Shown here: positions 3,631 to 40,878 of the stretch, one piece after another
Layout: each line of letters starts with the position of its first letter
How positions within the stretch are numbered: the first letter of the stretch is position 1
NCBI RefSeq assembly: GCF_013122565.1
Contig: NZ_CP053258.1
DNA: 64,000 nucleotides
Source: Escherichia coli
Lineage (GTDB): Bacteria > Pseudomonadota > Gammaproteobacteria > Enterobacterales > Enterobacteriaceae
Strand: one strand, 5' to 3'
Made by a program: the position numbers and the translations under genes
The notes under the pieces: generated by a model
Told to the model about the DNA's origin: nothing
The model's input: the letters and a program-made list of their open reading frames with translations, nothing else
Databases searched by the model: none

Positions 3631-4434
3631 ATGAACGCATTATTAACCAATCCCTTTAAAGAACGTTTACGCAAGGGCGAAGTGCAAATTGGTCTGTGGT
3701 TAAGCTCAACAACTGCCTATATGGCAGAAATTGCCGCCACTTCCGGTTATGACTGGTTGCTGATTGACGGGGAGCACGCGCCAAACACCATTCAGGATCT
3801 TTATCACCAGCTACAGGCGGTAGCGCCCTATGCCAGCCAACCCGTGATCCGTCCGGTGGAAGGCAGTAAACCGCTGATTAAACAAGTCCTGGATATTGGC
3901 GCGCAAACTCTACTGATCCCGATGGTCGATACTGCCGATCAGGCACGTCAGGTGGTGTCTGCCACGCGCTATCCTCCCTACGGTGAGCGTGGTGTCGGGG
4001 CCAGTGTGGCACGGGCTGCGCGCTGGGGACGCATTGAGAATTACATGGCGCAAGTTAACGATTCACTTTGTCTGTTGGTGCAGGTGGAAAGTAAAACGGC
4101 ACTGGATAACCTGGACGAAATCCTCGACGTCGAAGGGATTGATGGCGTGTTTATTGGACCTGCGGATCTTTCTGCGTCGTTGGGCTACCCGGATAACGCC
4201 GGGCACCCGGAAGTGCAGCGAATTATTGAAACCAGTATTCGGCGGATCCGTGCTGCGGGTAAAGCGGCTGGTTTTCTGGCTGTGGCTCCTGATATGGCGC
4301 AGCAATGCCTGGCGTGGGGAGCGAACTTTGTCGCTGTTGGCGTTGACACGATGCTCTACAGCAATGCCCTGGATCAACGACTGGCGATGTTTAAATCAGG
4401 CAAAAATGGGCCACGCATAAAAGGTAGTTATTGA
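3631..4434 (+). CDS. rhmA: 2-keto-3-deoxy-L-rhamnonate aldolase (HpcH/HpaI family)
   Basis: 267-aa protein from ATG 3631 (SD AAGGAA upstream); the ORF-track entry 3328..4434 is an artefactual N-terminal extension overlapping rhmT. Confidence 0.85.
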
Positions 4435-4440
4435 TATCAA

Positions 4441-4467
4441 AGGCCCATGGGGATCGGCTGTGGGCCT
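4441..4467. terminator. Hairpin between convergent rhmA and ypaA (aggccca...tgggcct)
   Basis: 7-bp inverted repeat with 13-nt loop in the 40-bp gap between convergent genes. Confidence 0.4.
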
Positions 4468-4474
4468 GTGTTAA

Positions 4475-4696
4475 TTAGTGGTTATTCGCTGCCAGATCGG
4501 CTTCGCTTAGCTGGGTGGCCGCGAGCACCAGGTCACGATCAATGCCCTGTTCCAGCATGCGCAAAGCAATTTTAATGGCTTGTTCATGCATACCTTCCTG
4601 CAAACCTTCTAATTTACCTTGCTGCAAACCTACTAATTTACCTTCTTGCCAGCCAATTTGATGTCCTTCCTGCCGTAGCCGTTCAGCAATAGTCAT
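4475..4696 (-). CDS. ypaA: Small protein paralogous to the C-terminal ~56 aa of RpnB, with a repeat expansion
   Basis: 73 aa from ATG 4696 (ORF track begins one codon earlier at TTG); AAGGAGAG SD; near-identical at DNA level to rpnB 3' end; 12 nt downstream of rpnB stop. Confidence 0.7.
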   Translation of the reverse strand: MTIAERLRQEGHQIGWQEGKLVGLQQGKLEGLQEGMHEQAIKIALRMLEQGIDRDLVLAATQLSEADLAANNH

Positions 4697-4708
4697 CAAT
4701 CTCTCCTT

Positions 4709-4879
4709 TTAATGACAGTTCGGAATATCAGCATCAGTGAGTTGGGTTGCCGCCAGCACAATCTCACGTTCAAAGCCCTGCTCCAGCATGCGCAAAGCAA
4801 TTTTAATGGCTTGTTCATGCATACCTTCCTGCCAGCCAATTTGATGTCCTTCCTGCCGTAGCCGTTCAGCAATAGTCAT
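4709..4879 (-). CDS. Candidate in-frame internal small ORF within rpnB (56 aa, RpnS-like)
   Basis: Internal ATG at 4879 preceded by SD AAGGAGAG with 5-nt spacing, the same context as ypaA; shares frame and stop with rpnB. Confidence 0.45.
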
Positions 4880-5608
4880 CAATCTCTCCTTTTGTAGTGG
4901 TGAACGTTCGGCAATCTCCTCAATAAAACGGGTGAAACGGGAGGTATCGCCGCATTGCAGCAGATAATTAAACAGTGTTTGTAGCTGGCTGTCATTAGTG
5001 AAGCCTTTAACCAAAAGCGTGGTGATCCTGTCGACCATACCGATTAAATCGCGGTCGCGAATATGCTTTTGAATCAGTTCAAGCAGAGCTATACGCCGAT
5101 GTTGCATGATCTCATCGTCAGGTACGATGGTGATATCCACCAACGGAAAAGCTTCGGTGTACAACTGCCGGGCAAGTTGCGGATCGTCAAACTCATCCAG
5201 CCAGTTAAGTGAGTACGGGTAGGGCGAGGTTTCGCCATGATAAAACAGCAATGGCACCACCAGCGGAACTCTGTCATAGCCTTTATCCAGGTGACGCTGC
5301 ATGGCGGCAGTGGCATAGCGCATTAGCCGAAAAGCCATATTCTTTTCTGCAGAGCTTTGATGTTCAATCACGCAGTAGATATAACCGTCACCGTCGCTGG
5401 TTTCCACGGACCACAAAACATCCGAGTAGTAAGCGCGTAAACTTTTTTCAATAAAACTGGTGGGTTCCAGGCGTAAGGTTTGCAGGTTGCAAAGCTTGCG
5501 CAGCGGCTCTGGTAGATGTATTTCCAGAAAATCCCGTGCGGTTTCGGGTGTGAACATAAAGGTTTTAAACACCGCATCATGCGGGGAGGAGGTTGTTGAT
5601 TCGGTCAT
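4709..5608 (-). CDS. rpnB: Recombination-promoting nuclease, YhgA-like (Rpn) family
   Basis: 299-aa ORF; synteny with K-12 yfaD between glpC and rhmA; family assignment from recall. Confidence 0.8.
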
Positions 5609-5800: not shown

Positions 5801-9865
<4,065 letters not shown>

Positions 9866-9945
9866 TGTTATCCCTCTGAAGTTCGTTTTTTACCATTTAG
9901 CCATAGTAAAAACATGAATTGTTTGATTTCGCGCATATTCGCTCA

Positions 9946-9995
9946 TAATTCGAAAATGAAACGTGATTTCATGCGTCATTTTGAACATTTTGTAA
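9946..9995. promoter_or_regulatory. Palindromic operator-like elements in the glpA/glpT control region (candidate GlpR sites)
   Basis: atgaaacgtgatttcat palindrome and ttttgaacat half-site in the divergent intergenic region. Confidence 0.4.
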
Positions 9996-10011
9996 ATCTT
10001 ATTTAATAATG

Positions 10012-10027
10012 TGTGCGGCAATTCACA
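10012..10027. promoter_or_regulatory. CRP-like site tgtgcggcaattcaca
   Basis: TGTG-N8-CACA with the correct 16-bp geometry in the glpA/glpT divergent region. Confidence 0.5.
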
Positions 10028-10137
10028 TTTAATTTCTGAATGTTTTCTTAACATCGCGGCAACTCAAGAAACGGCTGGTTCTCCCACTGAATCAGGCTGT
10101 TAATCATAAATAAGACCACGGGCCACGGAGGCTTTCA

Positions 10138-11496
10138 ATGTTGAGTATTTTTAAACCGGCGCCACACAAAGCGCGCTTACCTGCTGCGGAGATCGATCCG
10201 ACTTATCGTCGATTGCGCTGGCAAATTTTCCTGGGGATATTCTTTGGCTATGCTGCTTACTATTTGGTTCGTAAGAACTTTGCGCTCGCTATGCCTTACC
10301 TGGTGGAGCAGGGATTCTCACGCGGTGATTTAGGTTTTGCGCTTTCTGGGATCTCGATCGCCTATGGATTTTCGAAATTCATCATGGGTTCGGTATCGGA
10401 TCGCTCGAATCCGCGCGTTTTCCTGCCCGCAGGTTTGATTCTGGCGGCGGCAGTGATGTTGTTTATGGGCTTTGTGCCATGGGCGACGTCGAGCATTGCG
10501 GTGATGTTTGTACTGTTGTTCCTCTGCGGCTGGTTCCAGGGAATGGGGTGGCCGCCGTGTGGTCGTACTATGGTGCACTGGTGGTCGCAGAAAGAACGTG
10601 GCGGCATTGTGTCAGTATGGAACTGTGCGCACAACGTCGGTGGTGGTATTCCGCCGCTGCTGTTCCTGCTGGGGATGGCCTGGTTCAATGACTGGCACGC
10701 GGCGCTCTATATGCCCGCTTTCTGCGCCATTCTGGTGGCACTATTCGCCTTTGCGATGATGCGCGATACCCCGCAATCCTGTGGTCTGCCGCCGATCGAA
10801 GAGTACAAAAATGATTATCCGGACGACTATAACGAAAAAGCGGAACAGGAGCTGACTGCGAAGCAAATCTTCATGCAGTACGTGCTGCCGAACAAATTGC
10901 TGTGGTACATCGCCATCGCCAACGTGTTCGTTTATCTGCTGCGTTACGGCATCCTCGACTGGTCACCAACTTATCTGAAAGAGGTTAAGCATTTCGCGCT
11001 GGATAAATCCTCCTGGGCCTACTTCCTTTATGAATATGCAGGAATTCCGGGCACCCTGCTGTGTGGATGGATGTCGGATAAAGTCTTCCGTGGCAACCGT
11101 GGGGCAACCGGCGTCTTCTTTATGACACTGGTGACCATCGCGACTATCGTTTACTGGATGAACCCAGCGGGCAATCCGAACGTCGATATGATTTGTATGA
11201 TTGTTATCGGCTTCCTGATTTACGGCCCTGTGATGCTGATCGGTCTGCATGCGCTGGAACTGGCACCGAAAAAAGCGGCAGGTACGGCAGCGGGCTTTAC
11301 CGGGCTGTTTGGTTACCTGGGCGGTTCGGTGGCGGCGAGCGCGATTGTTGGCTATACCGTGGACTTCTTTGGCTGGGATGGCGGCTTTATGGTAATGATT
11401 GGCGGCAGCATTCTGGCGGTTATCTTGTTGATTGTTGTGATGATTGGCGAAAAACGTCGCCATCAGGAATTACTGCAAAAACGCAACGGAGGCTAA
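10138..11496 (+). CDS. glpT: Glycerol-3-phosphate:phosphate antiporter (MFS)
   Basis: 452-aa MFS protein; GGAGG SD upstream; synteny with glpQ. Confidence 0.93.
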
Positions 11497-11500
11497 TGGC

Positions 11501-12577
11501 ATGAAATTGACGCTGAAAAACCTTAGCATGGCGATCATGATGAGTGGAATGATCATGGGAAGCAGTGCAATGGCGGCGGACAGCAACGAAAAAATAGTCA
11601 TCGCCCATCGCGGTGCCAGTGGATATTTGCCGGAGCATACGCTGCCAGCAAAAGCGATGGCGTATGCGCAGGGAGCGGATTATCTTGAACAGGATTTGGT
11701 GATGACCAAAGACGACCATCTGGTTGTTCTGCATGACCATTATCTCGATCGTGTTACTGATGTTGCCGATCGTTTCCCGGATCGGGCGCGCAAAGACGGT
11801 CGTTACTACGCGATAGATTTCACGCTGGATGAAATTAAGTCGCTGAAATTTACCGAAGGTTTCGATATTGAAAACGGTAAAAAAGTGCAGACTTATCCGG
11901 GGCGTTTCCCAATGGGTAAGTCCGACTTTCGGGTGCACACCTTTGAAGAAGAGATTGAATTTGTTCAGGGGTTAAATCACTCTACCGGGAAAAATATCGG
12001 TATCTATCCAGAAATCAAAGCGCCGTGGTTCCATCATCAGGAAGGGAAGGATATTGCGGCAAAAACGCTGGAAGTGCTGAAGAAATATGGTTACACCGGT
12101 AAGGACGATAAAGTTTATTTGCAATGTTTTGATGCTGATGAGCTGAAGCGTATTAAGAATGAGCTGGAACCTAAAATGGGCATGGATCTCAATCTGGTAC
12201 AGCTGATTGCCTATACCGACTGGAATGAAACGCAGCAGAAACAGCCGGATGGAAGCTGGGTTAATTACAACTACGACTGGATGTTTAATCCGGGTGCGAT
12301 GAAACAGGTGGCGGAATATGCTGATGGTATTGGTCCGGATTACCATATGTTGATTGAGGAGACATCGCAGCCGGGTAATATCAAACTCACTGGCATGGTG
12401 CAAGATGCTCAGCAGAATAAACTAGTAGTGCATCCTTATACCGTGCGGTCAGATAAACTGCCTGAATACACTACTGATGTGAATCAGTTATATGATGCTC
12501 TGTATAACAAAGCGGGTGTAAATGGGCTGTTTACTGATTTCCCTGACAAGGCAGTAAAATTTCTTAATAAAGAGTAA
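11501..12577 (+). CDS. glpQ: Periplasmic glycerophosphodiester phosphodiesterase
   Basis: 358 aa from ATG 11501 (SD GGAGG); signal peptide; GP-PDE HRG motif (IAHRGASGYLPEHT). Confidence 0.92.
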   Translation: MKLTLKNLSMAIMMSGMIMGSSAMAADSNEKIVIAHRGASGYLPEHTLPAKAMAYAQGADYLEQDLVMTKDDHLVVLHDHYLDRVTDVADRFPDRARKDGRYYAIDFTLDEIKSLKFTEGFDIENGKKVQTYPGRFPMGKSDFRVHTFEEEIEFVQGLNHSTGKNIGIYPEIKAPWFHHQEGKDIAAKTLEVLKKYGYTGKDDKVYLQCFDADELKRIKNELEPKMGMDLNLVQLIAYTDWNETQQKQPDGSWVNYNYDWMFNPGAMKQVAEYADGIGPDYHMLIEETSQPGNIKLTGMVQDAQQNKLVVHPYTVRSDKLPEYTTDVNQLYDALYNKAGVNGLFTDFPDKAVKFLNKE

Positions 12578-12585
12578 TGCTACTG

Positions 12586-12611
12586 CAGGATGGCGTTCAT
12601 GCGCCATCCTG
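12586..12611. terminator. Bidirectional hairpin between glpQ and the LysR gene
   Basis: caggatggcg-ttcat-cgccatcctg perfect inverted repeat. Confidence 0.5.
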
Positions 12612-12618
12612 TCTCACA

Positions 12619-13497
12619 TCAAATTTTTCCACTCTCCACTAATTGTTCCGTGCACATTTGCAGTAAAAACAGTGGGCTGCCTTCTACCGGCTTTTCTTTA
12701 GCCAGCAACGAAATCTGTCGATAGAAGGTTGGTTCGAGAGGAACGGAACACAATTCACCTGCAATGGTTTTCAGAGTTAACTCTGGTAATAAGGCGATAC
12801 CTAATCCCTGTCGAATAAAACTGATCGCTGTATCCGGGTGATTAAATTCATATTTTATCTGCGGGGTAATATTCTTTTCTTTAAATAACGTCATAATGCT
12901 TAATTCATAGCGCCCTTTACTAATAATTAACGATTCACCCATTAGCTCTTCCACTGTAATAGTGCTGCTTTTTGCCAGAGCATGGTCGGGCGGTAACACT
13001 ACGGTGAATTTATCCTGATAAATGGGCACGGAGTACATTCCGCTTACCGGAAAATGAACAAAACCGGCATCAATGGATTCATTCTGAAGCGAATCAATAA
13101 TCGCTGTGCTATTTTCCTCAAAAGGAATAATTTTTATATTCGGATGATGAATTTCAAAGTAGCGAATCACAACCGGTAAGATACAGGCGCAGACGCTGGG
13201 GAAACAACCAAGTCGCAGCGTTCTTTGAGGGTTCTGCTTTTCCTGTTCGGCTATCTCTTTTACTGCGTTAACTTCCCGATTAATGGCGCGCAGATGATGC
13301 ACAATGCGGTGGCCTGCTGTGGTCAGTTGTATAGTTTTACGGCGATCGCGTAACAGTATATTCACGCCAAGTTCTTGTTCGAGGGCAGCAATTGCCTGGC
13401 TTACCGCCGACTGCGTCATGAACAATCGCTTGCTGGCTTCAGTAAAGCCACCGTAATCCAGCACGGCGAGTAAAGAATTTATTTGGGTAAGAGTCAT
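12619..13497 (-). CDS. LysR-family transcriptional regulator
   Basis: 292 aa with N-terminal LysR HTH; occupies the position of the K-12 yfaH fragment as I recall. Confidence 0.8.
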   Translation of the reverse strand: MTLTQINSLLAVLDYGGFTEASKRLFMTQSAVSQAIAALEQELGVNILLRDRRKTIQLTTAGHRIVHHLRAINREVNAVKEIAEQEKQNPQRTLRLGCFPSVCACILPVVIRYFEIHHPNIKIIPFEENSTAIIDSLQNESIDAGFVHFPVSGMYSVPIYQDKFTVVLPPDHALAKSSTITVEELMGESLIISKGRYELSIMTLFKEKNITPQIKYEFNHPDTAISFIRQGLGIALLPELTLKTIAGELCSVPLEPTFYRQISLLAKEKPVEGSPLFLLQMCTEQLVESGKI

Positions 13498-13648
13498 TAG
13501 GGTGTACTAATCAATAATATTAAAACGATTAATTTCTCTAATAGCATGCCGCCATTTATACTTTTGTTCTGCAAAGTACATCACAATTTGACGCAACCGC
13601 AGTAACGGGAGTGTTGTCTGCGTGCGTCATCCTGATAGGCGGTAGGGT

Positions 13649-14839
13649 ATGAAAGAGAAGTTATGGACGAAGGATTTTTGGGCAATAACCATCATCAGCT
13701 TTATTATTTTCTTCGTCTTTTATGTTTTACTAACATTGTTGCCAATTTATATCTCTGACCGCTTACATGCCTCTCCTGATAAAGCCGGTTTGTTGGTGAC
13801 TTTATTTTTAATTGCCGCCATTGTTATTCGCCCCTTTGCCGGGCAATGGGTGGGTAAATATTCGAATAAAACTATTCTGGTGCTCTCTTCTCTGGCCTTT
13901 TTATTGGTCACAGCGTTGTATCCTTTTTGCCACTCAATTGAATCACTACTTTTTATTCGGGTGCTTCATGGTATTACCTTCGGGGTTATCACTACGGTAA
14001 AAGGAACGATTTCCGCGCGGCTGATCCCGGCCTCCCGACGTGGGGAGGGCATCAGTTTTTTCTCCCTGGCAATGGGGCTGGCAATGGTGGTCGGGCCGTG
14101 GATTGGTCTGAATATGGCGCGCTGGGAAGCCTTTAATCTGGCTTTCTGGCTATGCACGGGCGTGGCAGCGGTGGGGATTATCCTGTCGCTGATTATGACA
14201 GTGCCACCGGTTATCAGCCATGCTGATGGTTCAAAGCCGAAAGTGGGCTTCGCCGCCATGTTCGATCGCGCAGCGTTGCCATTTGCGATGGTCACCTTTT
14301 TTATGACCTTTTCGTATGCCGGGGTTTCTGCTTTTCTGGCGCTTTATGCTCGCGAACTTAACCTGATGTCGGCGGCCAGTAATTTCCTGCTTTGCTATGC
14401 CATCTTCCTGATGATCTGCCGTACCTTTACCGGCAATGTCTGCGACAAAAAAGGACCGAAATATGTGGTTTACCCTTGCCTTGTGTTCTTTACGGTAGGA
14501 CTGGTGGTTCTCGGCTACACCCAGGGAAGCATAATGATGGTTATTTCTGGCGCGTTGATTGGTATCGGGTATGGTTCTGTGACGCCAGTTTTTCAGACGC
14601 AGATTATCAGTTCAGTGGAGCCGCATAAAATCGGTGTCGCAAACTCTCTCTTCTTCAATGCGATGGATGCAGGCCTGGCGCTGGGAGCCTTTGTGATGGG
14701 GATGATGGTTGCACATACTGGCTATCGGATGATCTATCTGCTGGGCGCACTATTAGTGGTAGTGGCTGGTGGAGTCTATGCGCTGCAAATGAAGGGTAAA
14801 AGCCCTGTCGCGCTAGTAGTGGCAAAAGAAATTCATTAA
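13649..14839 (+). CDS. MFS transporter (probable efflux/permease), divergent from the LysR gene
   Basis: 396-aa highly hydrophobic protein, about 12 predicted TM segments. Confidence 0.8.
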   Translation: MKEKLWTKDFWAITIISFIIFFVFYVLLTLLPIYISDRLHASPDKAGLLVTLFLIAAIVIRPFAGQWVGKYSNKTILVLSSLAFLLVTALYPFCHSIESLLFIRVLHGITFGVITTVKGTISARLIPASRRGEGISFFSLAMGLAMVVGPWIGLNMARWEAFNLAFWLCTGVAAVGIILSLIMTVPPVISHADGSKPKVGFAAMFDRAALPFAMVTFFMTFSYAGVSAFLALYARELNLMSAASNFLLCYAIFLMICRTFTGNVCDKKGPKYVVYPCLVFFTVGLVVLGYTQGSIMMVISGALIGIGYGSVTPVFQTQIISSVEPHKIGVANSLFFNAMDAGLALGAFVMGMMVAHTGYRMIYLLGALLVVVAGGVYALQMKGKSPVALVVAKEIH

Positions 14840-14919
14840 TACGACACGTTTCATTAAGATTTTTCGCAGGTAACCACCTATAGTCATTGTCGTTAATAAA
14901 AAATGACAGGCGATAGGGT

Positions 14920-15570
14920 ATGGCAGTTTCAGCAAAGCACGACGAATTTAATCACTGGTGGGCAACAGAGGGCGACTGGGTTGAAGAGCCTAACTATCGC
15001 CGTAATGGTATGAGCGGGGTGCAATGCGTCGAGCGCAACGGCAAAAAGCTGTATGTAAAGCGCATGACGCATCATCTGTTTCATTCCGTACGTTATCCGT
15101 TCGGCCGACCAACGATTGTCCGTGAGGTTGCGGTAATTAAAGAACTGGAACGGGCCGGTGTCATCGTGCCGAAGATCGTTTTTGGTGAAGCGGTGAAAAT
15201 TGAGGGTGAATGGCGCGCGTTGCTGGTGACTGAAGATATGGCGGGGTTCATCAGCATTGCTGACTGGTATGCCCGGCATGCAGTAACGCCTTATTCTGAC
15301 GAAGTACGGCAAGCCATGTTGAAAGCAGTGGCGCTGGCGTTTAAGAAAATGCATAGCATTAATCGTCAGCATGGCTGTTGTTATGTTCGCCATATCTATG
15401 TGAAAACAGAAGGTAAGGCAGAAGCTGGTTTTCTTGACCTGGAGAAAAGTCGTCGCCGCTTGCGTCGCCATAAAGCGATCAATCATGACTTCCGCCAGCT
15501 GGAAAAATATCTGGAGCCAATTCCCAAAGCGGACTGGGAGCAGGTGAAAGCGTATTACTACGCTATGTAA
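14920..15570 (+). CDS. inaA: Acid-inducible Kdo/WaaP-family protein kinase-like protein
   Basis: 216 aa; synteny next to yfaE-nrdB; the 225-aa minus-strand ORF over the same span is judged antisense artefact. Confidence 0.8.
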   Translation: MAVSAKHDEFNHWWATEGDWVEEPNYRRNGMSGVQCVERNGKKLYVKRMTHHLFHSVRYPFGRPTIVREVAVIKELERAGVIVPKIVFGEAVKIEGEWRALLVTEDMAGFISIADWYARHAVTPYSDEVRQAMLKAVALAFKKMHSINRQHGCCYVRHIYVKTEGKAEAGFLDLEKSRRRLRRHKAINHDFRQLEKYLEPIPKADWEQVKAYYYAM

Positions 15571-15573
15571 TCG

Positions 15574-15620
15574 TTGTAGGCCAGATAAAACGCATAAGCG
15601 CCGCATCTGGCACTACAACC
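15574..15620. repeat. REP palindromic unit
   Basis: gtaggccagataaaacgcataagcgccgcatctggcactac between inaA and yfaE. Confidence 0.6.
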
Positions 15621-15623
15621 AAT

Positions 15624-15878
15624 TCACATCTCGATTTCAATATCGCCTTTTGCCCGGCAACAACAGGGCAAAATTTCCCCCGGCTGAATAAAGGCTAACG
15701 GTTCGGCAATCCAGTCCACCTGACCTGCAACCAGGCGTGTGCGACAGGAGCCGCAGTAACCTTCGCGACACTGGTACTCAACCGCCACATTGTGGGATTC
15801 CAGCGCCGCCAGAAGAGAAGGGTGTTCATCCTGGCACAGCAGTTGTGTGCCAGTGATGCGCAGGGTAACGCGGGCCAT
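15624..15878 (-). CDS. yfaE: 2Fe-2S ferredoxin associated with ribonucleotide reductase
   Basis: 84 aa with CxxxxCxxC...C cluster; start overlaps nrdB stop by 1 nt. Confidence 0.88.
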   Translation of the reverse strand: MARVTLRITGTQLLCQDEHPSLLAALESHNVAVEYQCREGYCGSCRTRLVAGQVDWIAEPLAFIQPGEILPCCCRAKGDIEIEM

Positions 15879-17008
15879 CAGAGCTGGAAGTTACTCAAAT
15901 CGTCGGTGTCCACTTCCGCGTCAATCTGCCCGACCAGATAAGAACTGACTTCCACTTCCTGCGGAGCAACCTGCACGTTATCGGACACCAGCCAGGTGTT
16001 GATCCACGGGATCGGGTTGGAGCGAGTCTGGAACGGCAGATCCAAACCGACCGCCTGCATACGGATATTGGTGATGTACTCAACGTACTGGCAGAGAATG
16101 TCTTTATTCAGACCAATCATCGAACCGTCGCGGAACAGATAATCCGCCCAGTCTTTCTCCTGTTGAGCTGCCTGAACAAACAGGTCATAGCACTCCTGCT
16201 TACACTCTTCGGCAATTTCCGCCATCTCCGGATCATCTGCGCCGCTGCGCAGCAGATTCAGCATATGCTGAGTACCGGTCAGGTGCAGGGCTTCGTCGCG
16301 GGCAATCAGGCGAATAATTTTGGCGTTGCCTTCCATCAGTTCGCGTTCTGCAAAGGCAAAGGAGCAAGCAAAGCTGACGTAGAAACGAATCGCTTCCAGC
16401 GCGTTAACGCTCATCAGGCAGAGATACAGTTTTTTCTTCAGCTCGCGCAGGCTAACGGTTACGGTTTTACCGTTAACGGTGTGGGTGCCTTCGCCCAGAA
16501 GGTGCCAGTAGCTGGTCATTTCGATCAGTTCATCGTAATAGCTGGAGATCCCTTCCGCACGTTTCTGGATCTGCTCGTTGGTGACGATATCGTCAAACAC
16601 AACAGACGGATCGTTAATGATATTACGAATGATATGAGTATAGGAGCGGGAATGAATCGTTTCTGAGAACGCCCAGGTTTCGACCCAGGTTTCCAGTTCC
16701 GGGATCGAGATCAGCGGCAGCAGTGCCACGTTCGGGCTACGACCCTGAATGGAGTCCAGCAGCGTCTGATATTTCAGGTTGCTGATAAAGATGTGTTTTT
16801 CGTGTTCAGGCAGTGCCTGGTAATCGATACGGTCGCGAGAAACGTCAACTTCTTCCGGACGCCAGAAGAAAGAGAGCTGCTTTTCGATCAGCTTTTCGAA
16901 GATGTCATATTTTTGCTGATCGTAGCGAGCCACGTTGACCGGCTGACCAAAAAACATCGGTTCTTTAAGCTGATCATTTTTCGTCTGTGAAAAAGTGGTA
17001 TATGCCAT
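15878..17008 (-). CDS. nrdB: Class Ia ribonucleotide reductase beta subunit
   Basis: 376 aa, R2 family. Confidence 0.95.
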
Positions 17009-17044
17009 GAGTGTGTCCTGTGGTTTTATTACCCCTCACCCTAA

Positions 17045-17067
17045 CCCTCTCCCGCAAGGGGAGAGGG
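17045..17067 (-). other. GC-rich intercistronic hairpin between nrdA and nrdB
   Basis: ccctctccc-gcaa-ggggagaggg, 9-10-bp perfect stem. Confidence 0.5.
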
Positions 17068-17096
17068 GACGGTTTGGTGCAAAGGCTGGGGGATTA

Positions 17097-19382
17097 TCAG
17101 ATCTTACATGCGCCGCTTTCGCAGCCATCGTCCTGGATTGACGGCACCAGATCGTCCTGCGCGTCTTCAGCGCCGTCACGGGTGTTCTGATAATACAGCG
17201 TTTTGACCCCGAATTTGTAGGCGGTGAGCAGGTCTTTCAGCAGTTGCTGCATCGGCACTTTTCCTGACGGGAAGCGTGACGGATCGTAGTTGGTGTTGGC
17301 AGAGATCGACTGATCGATAAATTTCTGCATGATACCCACCAGTTGCAGATAACCATCGTTACCCGGCATTTCCCACAGCAGCTCATAAGCGTCGTGCAGG
17401 TGCTCGTAGTCCGGCACCACCTGGCGCAGAATACCGTCTTTCGACGCTTTGATGCTGACGTAACCGCGCGGCGGTTCAATACCGTTGGTGGCGTTAGAGA
17501 TCTGCGAAGAAGTCTCGGACGGCATCAGGGCAGAAAGCGTGGAGTTACGCAGGCCGTGCGTTTTGATTGATTCACGCAATGCTTCCCAGTCGTAATGCAG
17601 CGGCTCATTAGCGATGGCATCCAGATCTTTCTTATAGGTATCGATCGGCAGGATCCCTTTCGCGTAAGTGGTTTCGTTAAACCACGGGCACGCGCCTTGC
17701 TCTTTCGCCAGCTCGTTAGACGCTTTCAGCAGGTAATACTGAATCGCTTCGAAGGTTTTATGCGTCAGGTTGTTGGCGCTGCCGTCGGAGTAGCGTTTAC
17801 CGTGCTTCGCCAGGTAGTAAGCGAAGTTGATCACACCAATACCCAGCGTACGACGACCCATCGCTCCACGTTTGGCGGCCGGGATCGGGTAATCCTGATA
17901 ATCAAGCAGCGCGTCAAGTGCACGAACCGCCAGAATCGCCAGCTCTTCCAGTTCATCCAGGCTATTAATTGCGCCCAGGTTGAAAGCAGACAGCGTACAC
18001 AGCGCGATTTCACCGTTCTCGTCGTTGACGTCGTTCAGCGGTTTGGTCGGCAGGGCAATTTCCAGGCACAGGTTAGACTGGCGCACTGGCGCGATGGCCG
18101 GATCAAACGGGCTATGGGTATTGCAGTGGTCAACGTTCTGAATATAGATACGACCGGTAGACGCACGTTCCTGCATCATCAGCGAGAACAGCTCAACGGC
18201 TTTCACACGCTGCTTGCGGATGCTGTCGTCTTTCTCATATTTGGTATACAGGCGTTCAAACTCTTCCTGATCGGCGAAGAACGCGTCGTACAGCCCCGGT
18301 ACGTCGGACGGGCTGAACAGGGTGATATCTTCACCTTTCAGCAGGCGGGTATACATCAGTTTGTTGATTTGTACCCCGTAGTCCATATGACGCACGCGGT
18401 TGCCTTCAACCCCACGGTTGTTTTTCAACACCAGCAGGCTTTCCACTTCCAGATGCCACATCGGGTAGAACAGCGTTGCCGCACCGCCGCGCACACCGCC
18501 CTGAGAGCAGGATTTCACCGCTGTCTGGAAATGTTTGTAGAACGGGATACAGCCGGTATGGAACGCTTCGCCACCGCGAATCGGGCTACCCAGCGCACGA
18601 ATACGTCCGGCGTTGATGCCGATCCCGGCACGCTGGGAAACATATTTCACAATCGCGCTGGAGGTGGCGTTGATGGAATCCAGGCTGTCACCGCACTCGA
18701 TCAGTACGCAGGAGCTGAACTGACGAGTCGGGGTACGCACGCCGGACATGATTGGCGTCGGCAGCGAAATTTTAAATGTGGAAACCGCGTCGTAAAAACG
18801 CTTCACATATTGCAGGCGCGTTTCACGCGGGTAGTTCGAGAACAGGCACGCAGCAACCAGAATATAAAGGAACTGGGCGCTCTCATAGATTTCGCCGGTC
18901 ACACGGTTCTGTACCAGATATTTCCCTTCCAGCTGCTTAACGGCAGCATAAGAGAAGGTCATATCACGGTCGTGATCGATAAACGTGTCCATCTGCTTGA
19001 ACTCTTCTTCCGTGTAGTCTTCCAGCAGATGATTATCGTATTTGCCCATCTCGACCATTTTCACCACATGGTCGTACAGCGCAGGCGGCTCAAACTGGCC
19101 GTAGGCTTTTTTACGCAGGTGGAAGATCGCCAGGCGCGCGGCGAGATACTGATAATCCGGCGCATCACGGGAGATCAGGTCTGCGGCAGCCTTGATAATG
19201 GTTTCGTGGATGTCAGAGGTCTTGATACCGTCATAAAACTGAATGTGGGAGCGCAGCTCGACCTGGGAAATCGAAACGTTATGCAGTCCTTCTGCCGCCC
19301 AATCCAGAACGCGATGGATTTTGTCGAGATTGATGCGCTCTGTGCTACCGTCGCGCTTTGTCACCAGCAGATTCTGATTCAT
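17097..19382 (-). CDS. nrdA: Class Ia ribonucleotide reductase alpha subunit
   Basis: 761 aa with N-terminal ATP-cone; the 625-aa plus-strand ORF inside it is antisense artefact. Confidence 0.95.
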   Translation of the reverse strand: MNQNLLVTKRDGSTERINLDKIHRVLDWAAEGLHNVSISQVELRSHIQFYDGIKTSDIHETIIKAAADLISRDAPDYQYLAARLAIFHLRKKAYGQFEPPALYDHVVKMVEMGKYDNHLLEDYTEEEFKQMDTFIDHDRDMTFSYAAVKQLEGKYLVQNRVTGEIYESAQFLYILVAACLFSNYPRETRLQYVKRFYDAVSTFKISLPTPIMSGVRTPTRQFSSCVLIECGDSLDSINATSSAIVKYVSQRAGIGINAGRIRALGSPIRGGEAFHTGCIPFYKHFQTAVKSCSQGGVRGGAATLFYPMWHLEVESLLVLKNNRGVEGNRVRHMDYGVQINKLMYTRLLKGEDITLFSPSDVPGLYDAFFADQEEFERLYTKYEKDDSIRKQRVKAVELFSLMMQERASTGRIYIQNVDHCNTHSPFDPAIAPVRQSNLCLEIALPTKPLNDVNDENGEIALCTLSAFNLGAINSLDELEELAILAVRALDALLDYQDYPIPAAKRGAMGRRTLGIGVINFAYYLAKHGKRYSDGSANNLTHKTFEAIQYYLLKASNELAKEQGACPWFNETTYAKGILPIDTYKKDLDAIANEPLHYDWEALRESIKTHGLRNSTLSALMPSETSSQISNATNGIEPPRGYVSIKASKDGILRQVVPDYEHLHDAYELLWEMPGNDGYLQLVGIMQKFIDQSISANTNYDPSRFPSGKVPMQQLLKDLLTAYKFGVKTLYYQNTRDGAEDAQDDLVPSIQDDGCESGACKI

Positions 19383-19458
19383 GTATGTCGTACCTGTTTT
19401 TGGAATTCTTTCCGCAATAGTTTCATGCAGACTACCTGTAGTACGGGAGGCTGCTTAG

Positions 19459-19506
19459 AACACTATATATAGGGGGTATGTTTGGGATTCACTGCAAGAT
19501 AGTGTG
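19459..19506 (-). promoter_or_regulatory. Two NrdR-box-like palindromes in the nrdAB promoter/leader
   Basis: cactatatatag core at 19461-19472 and cactgcaagatagtgtg at 19490-19506, centres about 31 bp apart. Confidence 0.5.
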
Positions 19507-19535
19507 AAAATGGCCCTCTTGCAAGTGCATAACTT

Positions 19536-19544
19536 TGTGGATAA
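19536..19544 (-). promoter_or_regulatory. DnaA box (TTATCCACA on minus strand)
   Basis: Perfect 9-mer upstream of the nrdA promoter region. Confidence 0.5.
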
Positions 19545-20077
19545 CTCAGGAAGGAAAAAGTGGCTTTCGCGCACCTTAGGTCAGACAAGGTGTCCGGGAA
19601 AGTCAATGGGAAGAGAAAAATTTGTTAAAAATAACTGTTCGGCGATTTCTTGAACGGCAGAATAGGTTGGATAAATTGATATAGATGGTTTATTAATCTT
19701 TTTGCTAATGATTGCAAAAATTGATCTAAGCACGAGTCATCACATAATCTGATGTATCAGTTGTGGTCAATATATAAGCGAATGTAAGCGATTGTTGATG
19801 TCGAAATGGTTGTTTTCTATTCGGTTGTTGTTAAATGCTAAGCCATTTTGTTAATTTACCTTATATTATAAGAAAATTATTGATTACTTTAATTCAGTTT
19901 AAATATAACTGATATCCCTAAAGGTTATTAACTTGAATTATGACGCATTGATATTATTCATCAAATAATAACAAAATAGCCATTGCACCGCGTTGAACAA
20001 TTTACAAAAGAAAGAAAAACCTTATTGCATAATACGTTTAAATACGCCGTCTTATATAAAATGATGGTCAGATTAAT

Positions 20078-23000
20078 ATGCGAGTTATCTTTCTACGCAA
20101 GGAGTATTTATCTTTACTCCCGTCAATGATTGCGTCTCTCTTCTCAGCTAATGGCATTGCGGCAGTCACTGATTCATGCCAGGGATATGATATCAAAGCG
20201 AGTTGCCAGGCCAGCAGGCAAAGCCTTTCAGGCATTACGCAGGACTGGAGTATCGCCGATGGGCAATGGCTGGTTTTTTCGGATATGACCAATAACGCCA
20301 GCGGTGGGGCCGTATTTTTGCAACAAGGAGCGAAATTTACATTATCACCAGAAAACGAAACTGGAATGACTCTGTTTGCCAATAACACCGTTACAGGAGA
20401 ATATAATAACGGCGGGGCCATATTTGCTAAAGAAAACTCAACGCTGAATCTTACTGATGTTATTTTTTCCGGTAACGTCGCAGGCGGCTATGGTGGCGCA
20501 ATCTATTCTTCTGGTACTAATGATACTGGTGCCGTCGATTTAAGTGTCACTAACGCCATGTTTCGCAATAACATCGCTAATGATGGCAAAGGTGGCGCAA
20601 TTTATACCATTAATAATGACGTCTATTTAAGTGATGTTATTTTTGATAACAACCAGGCATATACATCAACAAGTTACAGTGATGGCGATGGCGGGGCAAT
20701 CGATGTTACCGATAATAATAGCGACAGCAAGCATCCTTCAGGTTATACGATAATAAATAACACCGCCTTTACAAATAACACAGCCGAAGGTTATGGCGGG
20801 GCGATATATACCAATAGCGCGACGGCTCCCTATCTTATTGATATTTCTGTTGATGACAGCTACAGCCAGAACGGCGGCGTGTTAGTCGATGAGAACAATA
20901 GCGCAGCAGGCTATGGAGAGGGTCCTTCCACTGCGGCGGGTGGCTTTATGTATCTCGGCTTAAGTGAAGTTACCTTTGATATTGCCGACGGAAAAACGCT
21001 GGTTATCGGCAATACAGAGAATGACGGAGCTGTTGACTCTATTGCTGGTACCGGGTTGATCACCAAAACAGGTTCCGGCGATCTGGTACTTAATGCAGAT
21101 AACAATGACTTTACTGGTGAGATGCAGATTGAAAACGGTGAAGTTATCCTGGGCCGCAGCAACTCACTGATGAATGTCGGAGATAGTCATTGCCAGGACG
21201 ATCCGCAACACTGCTACGGTCTGACGATAGGGAGTATTGATAAGTACCAGAATCAGGCAGAACTAAATGTTGGCTCCACCCAACAAACCTTTGTGCACTC
21301 ATTGACGGGCTTTCAGAATGGCACTTTAAATATCGATGCTGGTGGCAACGTTACTGTTAATCAGGGCAGTTTTGCTGGCACCATCGAAGGTGCTGGTCAG
21401 CTCACCATTGCGCAAAACGGCAGCTACGTGCTGGCAGGGGCGCAGTCAATGGCGCTAACTGGCGATATAGTGGTGGATGATGGCGCGGTGCTTTCGCTGG
21501 AAGGCGACGCGGCAGATCTTGCCGCTCTCCAGGACGATCCGCAGTCGATCGTGTTAAACGGCGGTGTGCTCGATCTCTCTGATTTCTCCACCTGGCAGAG
21601 CGGTACATCATACAACGATGGCCTTGAAGTCAGCGGCAGCAGCGGAACGGTTATCGGCAGTCAGGATGTGGTAGATCTTGCAGGCGGAAACGATATGCAT
21701 ATCGGCGGTGACGGGAAAGATGGCGTCTACGTGGTGGTGGATGCGGGCGACGGGCAGGTCAGCCTGGCAAATGACAATCAATACCTCGGCACAACGCAAA
21801 TTGCTTCCGGTACGCTGATGGTGAGCGACAACACGCAGCTTGGAGATACCCATTATAACCGCCAGGTTATCTTTACTGATAATCAACAAGAAAGCGTGAT
21901 GGAGATTACTGCCAATGTCGATACTCGTTCTACAACGGCTGAGCATGGGCGTGATATTGAAATGCGCGCCGACGGTGAAGTGGCAGTTGATGCGGGGGTA
22001 GACACGCAGTGGGGCGCACTGATGGCTGACAGCAGCAGGCAACATCAGGATGAGGGTAGCACATTGACTAAAACGGGGGCGGGTACACTTGAGCTGACCG
22101 CCAGCGGTACAACGCAGTCAGCGGTACGTGTCGAAGAAGGCTCCCTGAAAGGTGATGTTGCGGATATCTTCCCTTATGCTTCGTCGCTGTGGGTCGGTGA
22201 CGGGGCAACGTTCGTTACTGGCGCGGATCAGGATATTCAGTCAATTGATGCTACTTCCAGCGGCACTATCGACATCAGCGATGGTACGGTTTTGCGCCTG
22301 ACCGGGCAGGATACTTCCGTCGCCCTTAATGCCTCACTGTTTAACGGCGATGGGACGCTGGTGAATATCACCGATGGCGTGACGTTGACAGGTGAGCTTA
22401 ATACCAACCTTGAAACTGACAGCCTGACCTATCTTGCCGACGTGACGGTTAATGGTGATCTGACCAATACGTCCGGTGCGGTTAGCCTGCAAAATGGCGT
22501 CGTTGGCGATACGCTGACGGTAAACGGTGATTACACCGGCGGCGGTACGTTACTGCTCGACAGCGAATTAAACGGCGATGACTCAGCAAGCGACCAGTTG
22601 GTGTTGAACGGTAATACTGCTGGCAATACCACGGTTGTGATTAATCCCATTACAGGGATTGGTGAGCCGACATCTACAGGCATTAAAGTGGTTGATTTCG
22701 CAGCTGATCCCACGCAGTTTCAAAACAATGCGCAGTTCAGTCTGGCAGGCAGTGGCTACGTCAACATGGGAGCGTATGACTACACGCTGGTGGAAGATAA
22801 CAACGACTGGTATCTGCGATCGCAAGAAGTAACGCCGCCATCGCCACCTGATCCAGACCCGACTCCCGATCCTGATCCTTCGCCGGATCCTGATCCAACA
22901 CCCGACCCGGCCCCTACGCCTGCCTACAAGCCAGTGTTGAATGCCAAAGTTGGTGGATATTTTAATAACCTGCGGGCGGCAAATCAGGCGTTTATGATGG

Positions 23001-40001: not shown

Positions 40002-40200
40002 GACGGATAAGGTGTTTATGCCGCATCTGGCATTCAGTGCAAATGCCAGATGCGACGCTGACGCGTCTTATCTGGCCTACTTTAATGTAATCTGTTGAAA
40101 TAATGGGAATCGTAGGACGGATAAGGCGTTTACGCCGCATCCGGCAATCGGTGCAAATGCCAGATAAGACACTAACTAGTCTTATCTGGCCTACATCTGG
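39991..40200. repeat. Tandem duplication (period 114 bp) of a REP-containing unit
   Basis: gggaatcgtaggacggataagg occurs at 39991 and 40105, each followed by REP palindromes; the first copy includes the last 11 nt of rcsC. Confidence 0.7.
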
Positions 40201-40211
40201 CCTACAGATGA

Positions 40212-40862
40212 TTAGTCTTTATCTGCCGGACTTAAGGTCACAGAAGAGAGATAATTCAGCAGGGCGATATCGTTCTCGACACCCAGCTTCATCATCGCAG
40301 ATTTCTTCTGGCTACTGATGGTTTTAATACTGCGGTTCAGCTTTTTAGCGATCTCGGTCACCAGGAAGCCTTCCGCAAACAGGCGCAGAACTTCACTCTC
40401 TTTTGGCGAGAGACGCTTGTCACCGTAACCACCAGCACTGATTTTTTCCAACAGGCGAGAAACGCTTTCCGGGGTAAATTTCTTCCCTTTCTGCAGCGCG
40501 GCGAGAGCTTTCGGCAGATCGGTCGGTGCACCTTGTTTCAGCACGATCCCTTCAATATCCAGATCCAATACCGCACTAAGAATCGCCGGGTTGTTGTTCA
40601 TAGTCAGAACAATGATCGACAGGCTTGGGAAATGGCGCTTGATGTACTTGATTAAGGTAATACCATCGCCGTACTTATCGCCAGGCATGGAGAGATCGGT
40701 AATCAACACATGCGCATCCAGTTTCGGCAGGTTGTTGATCAGTGCTGTAGAGTCTTCAAATTCGCCGACAACATTCACCCACTCAATTTGCTCAAGTGAT
40801 TTGCGAATACCGAACAAGACTATCGGATGGTCATCGGCAATAATTACGTTCATATTGTTCAT
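40212..40862 (-). CDS. rcsB: Rcs response regulator (LuxR/FixJ family)
   Basis: 216 aa from ATG 40862 (MNNMNVIIADDHPIV); receiver domain plus C-terminal HTH. Confidence 0.95.
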   Translation of the reverse strand: MNNMNVIIADDHPIVLFGIRKSLEQIEWVNVVGEFEDSTALINNLPKLDAHVLITDLSMPGDKYGDGITLIKYIKRHFPSLSIIVLTMNNNPAILSAVLDLDIEGIVLKQGAPTDLPKALAALQKGKKFTPESVSRLLEKISAGGYGDKRLSPKESEVLRLFAEGFLVTEIAKKLNRSIKTISSQKKSAMMKLGVENDIALLNYLSSVTLSPADKD

Positions 40863-40878
40863 GTAATAGGCTACCTTG

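Follow-up and report, generated by a model that had tools for sequence, protein, structure and literature searches.

The interval between glpQ, which ends at position 12577 of the analysed window (a 64,000-nt stretch of Escherichia coli DNA), and inaA, which starts at 14920 and gives a Kdo/InaA match in Pfam, contains only two genes, which are transcribed divergently:

12619-13497, minus strand: LysR-type regulator gene (ORF, 292 aa)
13649-14839, plus strand: MFS transporter gene (ORF, 396 aa)
13498-13648: divergent control region of 151 bp between the LysR and MFS genes
12586..12611: hairpin with a 10-bp stem, CAGGATGGCG-TTCATG-CGCCATCCTG, between the convergent glpQ and LysR genes, read from the sequence

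The ORFs matched exactly the arrangement described in an earlier note on this DNA, including the gene lengths, the spacer and the glpQ-inaA position. The hairpin obtained no canonical-terminator score in the terminator scan, the Rfam search (E ≤ 1) over 12300-15200 returned no RNA family, and the consensus promoter/terminator scan of 12450-15000 left the spacer empty, with overall counts no higher than expected from shuffled sequence. The AT-richness that had been judged by eye in the same note was borne out by calculation, although its degree is moderate (lowest 5%). The LysR gene has a GC content of 43.6% and a GC3 of 42.7%, which is the lowest among the 43 ORFs of the window (mean 58.1%, sd 4.9). 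Within the MFS gene, GC rises from 42.7% over the first 400 nt to 51.2% in the remainder; the LysR gene and these first 400 nt fall into the bottom 4.8% of same-size windows for GC. The flanking glpQ gene is also low in GC (45.3%), and the overall GC3 of the MFS gene (53.9%) is unremarkable.

Judged by gene content, gene order and protein identity, the interval is an intact copy of O-island 97 (OI-97) of EHEC O157:H7, with z3495 as the LysR gene and z3494 as the MFS gene. In EDL933, the same two genes are found in the same orientation, with the same 151-bp spacer and in the same glpQ-inaA place, at 97-98% amino acid identity, and the deletion primers listed in the supplement of the published study (PMC10819331) match the O157 spacer sequence. 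O157:H7 differs from the window by an extra 1.7-kb segment of 33.6% GC between glpQ and the regulator gene, in which a 356-aa ORF gave no significant Pfam match. The module is thus already known (OI-97, z3494/z3495) and has been the subject of one functional paper, and its K-12 remnant yfaH carries an annotation as a fragment of a LysR pseudogene. Mentions of yfaH in the literature, judged by titles and occurrence counts, were only incidental, and a search under the guessed Salmonella and Sakai locus tags STM2280, STM2281, ECs3121 and ECs3122 returned nothing.

The regulator is the ortholog of Z3495 of EHEC EDL933. Pfam HTH_1 at residues 3-63 (5.5e-18) and LysR_substrate at residues 88-267 (1.9e-35) correspond to the layout of the family, that is, an N-terminal HTH_1 followed by a substrate-binding domain in a protein of ~300 aa, and the relatives in the PDB include CysB, BenM and OxyR. 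The protein shares 97-98% amino acid identity with the intact E. coli copies, with a dN/dS of 0.05-0.11.

The transporter is the ortholog of Z3494 and is DHA1-like, being only distantly similar to YfcJ and YhhS. It matches Pfam MFS_1 (1.8e-60), contains twelve hydrophobic 19-mers, corresponding to twelve predicted helices, and carries the motif B arginine R104 (RVLHG); its gene has a dN/dS of 0.05-0.13. Motif A is degenerate at loop 2-3 (GQWVGKYSNK) and better at loop 8-9 (GNVCDKKGPK), and helix 5 contains a motif-C-like GP149-150 rather than the full motif C. A single acidic residue, D340, is embedded in the membrane, and it does not vary among 10 orthologs. NorA (1e-12) is the nearest solved structure, and only NorA and an L-lactate transporter were matched by sequence among the solved structures. 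The best NCBIfam matches were to the YfcJ/YhhS group (TC 2.A.1.46), yet they remained below both cut-offs: membership of YhhS (NF003477) was rejected at 112 bits against a cut-off of 374, and that of YfcJ (NF009048) at 84 bits against 364, K-12 YfcJ itself scoring 704 bits. Identity to K-12 YfcJ is 25% over 119 residues; in the published study, Z3494 was given an "MFS_YfcJ" domain match (PMC10819331). The score is far under the curated cut-off for every named NCBIfam transporter family, and these comparisons identified no substrate, in agreement with the earlier note, which assigned none.

In K-12, the locus is degraded, as stated in the earlier note, which named the LysR fragment yfaH; the final 105 nt of the MFS gene are retained there as well. 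The retained part of the LysR gene comprises its last ~80 codons, and the 68-aa YfaH model of NCBIfam (NF007272) matches residues 226-292 of the regulator; the yfaH pseudogene is the same as the 3′ end of the regulator gene in the window. K-12 is without 1,879 bp, comprising the part of the LysR gene that encodes the N-terminus, the spacer and ~91% of the MFS gene. The breakpoints were located by a three-way junction comparison at two copies of a direct repeat:

12856..12866: first copy of TATCTGC-N-GGG, at which the K-12-type deletion has its left breakpoint
14735..14745: second copy of TATCTGC-N-GGG, at which the deletion has its right breakpoint, at a distance of 1,879 bp from the first

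The K-12 junction joins the remnants at TATCTGC, which is present at both breakpoints. Because both genes leave remnants and these are joined at a short direct repeat, the K-12 state is a deletion. The locus is strain-variable in E. coli, again as expected: in a survey of 5,426 complete E. coli genomes, the module core was carried by 1,232 (23%), the scar of the 1,879-bp deletion was found in ~3,000 (~56%), and about 1,060 to 1,175 (given as 19%) lacked the module wholly, the module-free strains being recognised as what we take to be phylogroup B2 reference strains. Nearly all of the K-12-type matches listed span the same 821 bp. The module-free haplotype contains a 122-nt filler, for which no match was obtained in any of the loci compared or in the window. 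Further E. coli variants include partial deletions, IS hits and one allelic replacement, and no complete E. coli genome surveyed exceeds 97.4% identity to the window.

A different origin was proposed in the 2024 paper in which Z3495 was reported to activate rcsF/LEE and was described as laterally acquired (PMC10819331); the earlier note likewise had the module "inserted" and "possibly horizontally acquired". Such an islet, having entered the glpQ-inaA interval of certain E. coli lineages, would agree with the GC content of the regulator gene and of the 5′ portion of the MFS gene, which both rank among the lowest 5% in the window, with the patchy distribution in E. coli, and with the independent lateral acquisition that was inferred in that paper from two E. 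coli clades (PMC10819331). However, the pair lies in the same slot, between the glp genes and yfaE-nrdBA, across at least ten other enterobacterial genera. The taxa sharing this slot are Escherichia sp., E. whittamii, Salmonella arizonae and diarizonae, five Citrobacter, Kluyvera, Klebsiella spallanzanii, Pseudocitrobacter, Superficieibacter, Phytobacter and Pluralibacter. Synonymous divergence from E. whittamii (dS of 0.53 for LysR and 0.67 for MFS) is similar to that of the flanks (0.78 for glpQ and 0.66 for inaA), and that from Salmonella (1.75 and 1.60, respectively) is similar to the 1.48 of nrdB. For the regulator gene, GC3 varies with the host genus, with values of 0.36-0.43 in Escherichia, 0.48 in Salmonella, 0.56-0.58 in Citrobacter and 0.67 in Kluyvera; since the low value is specific to Escherichia, it speaks against reading the low GC as a donor signature. 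No tRNA, integrase or IS was found at the module, and no flanking repeat pair brackets it. With respect to the criteria for a genomic island, the findings are synteny in more than 10 genera, dS concordant with the flanks and no mobility signatures; together with the K-12 scar, where remnants at a direct-repeat junction point to deletion, they contradict insertion, and a lateral origin of the module is largely refuted and, in our estimation, very unlikely. At the same time, a divergent O145-type regulator allele, carried by ~99 E. coli genomes, also speaks for lateral transfer: its dS of 1.72 is far above that of the flanks (0.07-0.33), which shows that it was imported by recombination from a distant donor, so lateral exchange at the locus is not zero. 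As to the neighbouring gene, it is inaA that is narrowly distributed at this slot, Escherichia and Pseudocitrobacter being the only genera in which it was found.

The spacer was compared in an alignment of 25 orthologous intergenic regions from more than 10 genera, and the following elements were recognised:

13507..13544: conserved candidate operator block CTAAT...ATTAAAACGATTAAT...CTAAT, predicted LysR binding site, near-invariant in the 25 loci
13519-13533: T-N11-A dyad ATTAAAACGATTAAT (ATTAA-N5-TTAAT), detected as a palindrome
13557..13562, plus strand: -10-like hexamer TATACT without a good -35, candidate activator-dependent MFS promoter, read from the sequence
13580..13595: second conserved block of the spacer, ATCACAATTTGACGCA, from the 25-locus alignment

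The dyad and the CTAAT repeats flanking it are nearly unchanged in the 25 loci, and the remaining spacer diverges, apart from the second block, in which TCACA never varies and ACGCA hardly does. The 64-kb window contains one exact copy of the dyad, namely that in the spacer, and other occurrences have 2-3 mismatches, at about the chance level. A divergent neighbour gene and a T-N11-A dyad in the shared spacer are the usual pattern for LysR-type regulators, and we infer that the conserved block 13507-13544 is the binding site of the regulator. The TATACT element, missed by the consensus sigma-70 scan, is kept in Escherichia, Salmonella and Citrobacter; the centre of the dyad lies ~40 nt upstream of the start implied by this candidate -10, which is closer than the classical -65 recognition site of LysR proteins. 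In Leminorella, the pair and the operator are kept together in an unrelated context, fadR-dsbB. Conservation of the dyad and the CTAAT repeats in the 25 loci, Leminorella included, argues for a functional coupling of the regulator and the transporter.

The reading to which we assign a probability of roughly 0.75 is that the OI-97 module is ancestral, vertically inherited and under purifying selection, and that the regulator acts at the dyad on its own gene and on the putative exporter gene. According to this reading, an ancestral enterobacterial pair would have been inherited vertically, with purifying selection wherever it was retained, and would have disappeared from E. coli on several occasions, by the 1,879-bp direct-repeat deletion that left the yfaH scar and by complete absence in the strains recognised as B2. 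The regulator would bind the T-N11-A dyad block beside its own start codon, from which it would autoregulate, and, when bound to a small-molecule ligand, it would activate the divergent transporter gene at its weak-(-35) promoter; control of the neighbouring transporter and of itself in response to a ligand is what the arrangement of the locus leads us to infer. The transporter would be a 12-helix, DHA1-like, proton-coupled protein that most likely exports this ligand or a related compound. Any action of the regulator on rcsF and LEE in O157:H7 would then be a secondary role that is specific to the lineage. Divergent LysR/MFS exporter pairs of E. coli such as PunR-PunC (ydhB-ydhC) offer an architectural likeness to the module: a LysR gene is divergent there from the gene of a 12-helix DHA1-type MFS protein, with a T-N11-A site in the spacer between them. 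These pairs are not known to be orthologous to the module, and the likeness is architectural only.

The functional part of this reading has two rivals, both of which we consider unlikely. One of them takes the regulator to be chiefly a global or virulence regulator, acting through rcsF on LEE, with the adjacency of the transporter being incidental. Pair and operator are, however, kept in genera without LEE and remain together in the different genomic context of Leminorella, and EPEC E2348/69, which is LEE-positive, carries the module-free haplotype. The K-12 rcsF promoter fragment used in the published study contained no site like the conserved dyad at ≥10/15 matches, only generic T-N11-A dyads. 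The published experiments do favour a virulence role: deletion of z3495 resulted in lower LEE transcription, adherence and mouse colonisation and was complemented, binding of Z3495 to the rcsF promoter was reported by EMSA and ChIP-qPCR, and deletion of z3494 had no adherence or colonisation phenotype (PMC10819331). Since one deletion has a phenotype and the other has none, the regulator has transporter-independent effects. The ChIP-seq enrichments of the same study, on the other hand, were small (log2 1.2-1.8) and fell mostly on dnaKJ, ompA, ompC, pflB, ptsHI and clpB, along with genes in K-12 coordinates; the ChIP-seq table uses K-12-like coordinates, in which the spacer does not exist (PMC10819331).

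Import of a nutrient or signal, with the regulator inducing uptake when the compound is present, is the other rival, and it appears improbable to the same extent. The degenerate motif C, the existence of symporters among MFS proteins of similar size and the weak profile matches to lactate, aromatic-acid and sugar-acid symporter families are consistent with import, but the best profile and structure matches are to exporters (the YhhS/YfcJ group, CntE and NorA), and a catabolic enzyme gene stands beside the pair in none of the 25 loci, that of Leminorella included. Export rather than import seems most likely for the transporter, the motifs that speak for it being weak and degenerate.

A further step, which we hold to be rather doubtful, would be to regard the module as a conserved enterobacterial sensor-exporter pair whose repeated and independent losses in E. 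coli were due to lineage-specific selection and not to drift. If this were true, the label of a laterally acquired virulence regulator used in the literature would need revision, and the ligand of the regulator would serve as an input signal for Rcs and LEE control in the lineages that keep the module. No new kind of system is described here; the contribution is an evolutionary correction of the lateral-acquisition view, based on conserved synteny, flank-like synonymous divergence and the deletion scar in K-12, and the candidate operator at 13507-13544 is offered for the likely primary target of the regulator. Moreover, among O-islands defined solely by comparison with K-12, some are deletions in K-12 and not acquisitions by the pathogen.

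The divergent LysR regulator and MFS transporter genes lie in the window as the earlier note had described them, and the six-frame ORF list returned the same reading frames, orientation, spacer and flanks:

11501-12577, glpQ, left flank of the module
12619-13497, minus strand, LysR-type regulator gene, 292-aa ORF
13498-13648, spacer between the LysR and MFS genes, 151 bp
13649-14839, plus strand, MFS transporter gene, 396-aa ORF
14920-15570, inaA, right flank of the module

A Pfam search assigned HTH_1 and LysR_substrate to the regulator, MFS_1 to the transporter and the Kdo/InaA kinase family to the gene downstream, which NCBIfam identified as InaA at equivalog level. Regulator residues 226-292 matched NF007272 above its cut-off; this 68-position NCBIfam model, described merely as "hypothetical protein", corresponds to K-12 YfaH. 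Twelve helices were predicted for the transporter, which carries the motif B arginine in helix 4, the GP element in helix 5 and a single membrane-embedded acidic residue, D340, invariant in ten orthologs; the nearest solved structure is NorA. Assignment to YhhS, YfcJ or another named NCBIfam transporter family was rejected, the scores falling far under the cut-offs.

The module is ancestral. With each species represented by one genome, a scan detected 26 loci with the transporter gene, and tblastn with the window's GlpA, GlpT, GlpQ, LysR, MFS, InaA, YfaE, NrdB and NrdA proteins placed the pair, divergent as in the window, between the glp genes and yfaE-nrdB-nrdA across genera: in two other Escherichia species, Salmonella enterica subsp. 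arizonae and diarizonae, five Citrobacter, three Kluyvera and one unnamed relative, Klebsiella spallanzanii, Pseudocitrobacter, two Superficieibacter, Phytobacter and Pluralibacter. The protein identities drop in step with phylogenetic distance, and the Nei-Gojobori dS of the module resembles that of its flanks, both against E. whittamii (LysR 0.53, MFS 0.67; glpQ 0.78, inaA 0.66) and against Salmonella arizonae (LysR 1.75, MFS 1.60; nrdB 1.48). The dN/dS of both module genes (0.05-0.13) is comparable to that of inaA.

The base composition, which had looked AT-rich by eye, was confirmed as such by windowed GC, the effect being moderate. Against a window mean of 52.1%, the regulator gene has a GC of 43.6%, and its GC3 of 42.7% is the lowest among 43 ORFs (mean 58.1%, sd 4.9). 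In the transporter gene, GC is 42.7% over the first 400 nt and 51.2% thereafter. Compared with sliding windows of equal size, the regulator gene and these 400 nt both rank within the lowest 4.8%, and the entire interval of the earlier note (GC 45.9%) within the lowest 6.6%; glpQ, flanking the module, itself has just 45.3%. Leave-one-out codon scores of the two genes are ~1.3 and 0.8 sd under the window mean. The regulator GC3 tracks genus, with 0.36-0.43 in Escherichia, 0.48 in Salmonella, 0.56-0.58 in Citrobacter, 0.62 in Pluralibacter and 0.67 in Kluyvera, which makes the AT-richness a feature local to Escherichia and no donor signature. No tRNA gene was found within 8000-21000, no mobility gene between glpQ and inaA in the ORF list, and no repeat pair bracketing the module. 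The proposal of an inserted, possibly horizontally acquired module thus fails against the synteny across genera, the flank-like dS, the genus-tracking GC3 and the lack of these tRNA, mobility and repeat features.

The variability within E. coli, correctly anticipated in the earlier note, was quantified in 5,426 complete genomes. The flanks were present in 5,425 of them, and at least 80% coverage of a 2.7-kb module-spanning query was reached in 1,219 only. A query limited to the part absent in K-12 matched 1,232 genomes and the regulator gene's 3' fragment 4,251; a K-12-type remnant is therefore carried by ~3,000. In 1,057, including the phylogroup B2 strains ST131, 536, NRG 857C, E2348/69 and Seattle 1946, the whole module is replaced by a 122-nt sequence. 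In E. coli MS1494 this filler occupies positions 1679-1800 of the fetched locus (L004), with glpQ on one side and the region upstream of inaA on the other, and it had no match in the window or any fetched locus. Among the further variants, O104:H4 has an IS5-family insertion and strain 042 a partial fragment; coverage classes of 23% and 10% occur as well.

K-12 has lost 1,879 bp by deletion between short direct repeats, and the junction bears the signature of this event. BLAST placed the breakpoints at window 12866 and 14735; base-by-base comparison revealed that both carry the heptamer TATCTGC with N-GGG after it (12856-12866 and 14735-14745), and the change from left-type to right-type sequence in K-12 falls inside this repeat. 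In the K-12 annotation, a LysR fragment "missing N-terminus" adjoins a 105-nt hypothetical-protein fragment, the two being joined at the deletion repeat, so the claimed degradation to a LysR fragment holds. Almost all K-12-type matches listed cover one identical 821-bp span, which points to a single deletion event. Of the first interpretation as a whole, the strain variability and the K-12 remnant stand and the origin does not, the module being syntenic across genera.

The locus is not free of lateral exchange, which takes two forms, allelic replacement and an extra segment. The module core is merely ~85% identical to the query in ~99 of the 5,426 genomes. The O145 strain RM12367-C1 carries a mosaic patch (positions 3700-4900 of its locus, L031, ~window 12500-13800) with 70-81% identity vs 93-99% in the flanks, which begins at the glpQ end, takes in the LysR gene and spacer and stops ~150 nt inside the MFS gene. 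The dS of this regulator is 1.72 vs 0.07-0.33 for neighbouring genes, and the allele is about equidistant from every sampled Escherichia, Salmonella and Citrobacter allele; it is an allelic replacement via homologous recombination from a donor outside the sample. The other form is a 1.7-kb segment (GC 33.6%) between glpQ and the regulator gene, carried by O157:H7 and many further E. coli but neither by the window nor by other Escherichia species. In O157:H7 Z892 (L002, 1715-3423) it encodes a 356-aa ORF (WP_001301786.1), which had no significant match in Pfam and is frameshifted in strain UTME-7. This segment resembles foreign DNA more closely than the module does.

The module has been described before; what the present analysis contributes is an evolutionary correction, the mechanism of the deletion and a candidate operator with defined coordinates. 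O-island 97 of EDL933 is a 2,006-bp region missing in K-12, with z3494 (MFS) and z3495 (LysR), whose presence in two E. coli clades was taken as independent lateral acquisition (PMC10819331); the present data contradict that claim. The deletion primers in its supplement match the O157 spacer in our spacer alignment. Deletion of z3495, and not of z3494, is reported to reduce LEE transcription, HeLa adherence and mouse colonisation, and Z3495 to bind the rcsF promoter (PMC10819331). Supplementary Table S4 lists 97 Z3495 ChIP-seq peaks with log2 enrichment about 1.2-1.8, including dnaKJ, ompA, ompC, pflB, ptsHI and clpB (PMC10819331). The table appears to use K-12 coordinates: its positions for dnaJ (12-15 kb) and glpQ (2.351 Mb) fit K-12. 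Many of the peaks lie on highly expressed genes, such as the six loci named. The module's spacer does not exist in a K-12-like reference and could not be scored there, and nothing like the conserved dyad was found in the rcsF promoter fragment. The low enrichments, K-12-like coordinates, peaks on highly expressed genes and dyad-free rcsF fragment call for caution on the published regulon.

The candidate operator emerged from an alignment of 25 spacers, from Escherichia to Leminorella:

13507-13544, block CTAAT..ATTAAAACGATTAAT..CTAAT beside the regulator start codon, almost unchanged in the 25 loci
13557-13562, candidate promoter element, -10-like TATACT without recognisable -35
13580-13595, second conserved block

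The first block has at its core a perfect dyad, ATTAA-N5-TTAAT, whose T-N11-A pattern is characteristic of LysR recognition sites; the remaining spacer varies in sequence and in length (151-218 bp). A -10 without recognisable -35 is typical of activator-dependent promoters, and a consensus scan reported no promoter in the spacer. The Leminorella pair and operator have fadR-dsbB on one side and unrelated genes on the other; regulator, transporter and operator therefore travel together, and no accompanying enzyme gene was found beside them in any locus. From the conserved dyad, this co-travelling and the transporter features, a ligand-responsive regulator with an exporter is therefore proposed. 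The regulator would respond to a putative ligand, autoregulate through the candidate operator, and activate a proton-coupled MFS protein that probably exports this ligand or a related compound.

The window appears to represent a natural Escherichia lineage outside the complete E. coli genomes compared. Its best identity to any of the 5,426 complete E. coli genomes is 97.4% for the module (12400-15100) and 98.4% for nrdAB (15600-19400), with dS ~0.1 and dN/dS ~0.05-0.1; Escherichia sp. MOD1-EC7003, E1V33 and E. whittamii are all more distant from it than E. coli is.

Several minor observations were made. Among loci L007-L025, compared with window 14920-15570, inaA occupies the glpQ-nrd position in Escherichia and Pseudocitrobacter only; the MFS gene adjoins yfaE directly in Salmonella, Citrobacter, Kluyvera, Klebsiella and the remaining genera, and glpQ, or glpT and glpQ, is absent beside the pair in several. 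Two Citrobacter sp. loci (L008, L010) carry a ~56-bp spacer insertion between the -10-like element and the second block (217-218 vs ~160 bp). A 3.5-kb contig labelled MAG: Collinsella sp. (JAIJJM010000334.1, L027), 97.6% identical to the O157:H7 glpQ-LysR-MFS region, is almost certainly mis-binned Escherichia. Large ORFs at window 37200-43551, ~25 kb off the module, are candidate rcsD, rcsB and rcsC judging by size and order; they would belong to the Rcs phosphorelay, the pathway tied to Z3495 (PMC10819331), and their proximity was judged a coincidence of map position. Additionally, a 19-nt direct repeat, TGA[T/C]AGGCG[G/A]TAGGGTATG, ends on the MFS and inaA start codons (13633-13651 and 14904-14922; chance expectation ~0.03 per region). 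Its copies agree at 17/19 positions in the window and at 18/19 in those E. coli loci that carry the common MFS allele; the repeat is shorter but retained in other Escherichia species, and missing in Pseudocitrobacter and on the MFS side of the O145-type allele. Were the copies to recombine, the transporter gene would be cut out precisely and inaA set behind the LysR-controlled promoter.
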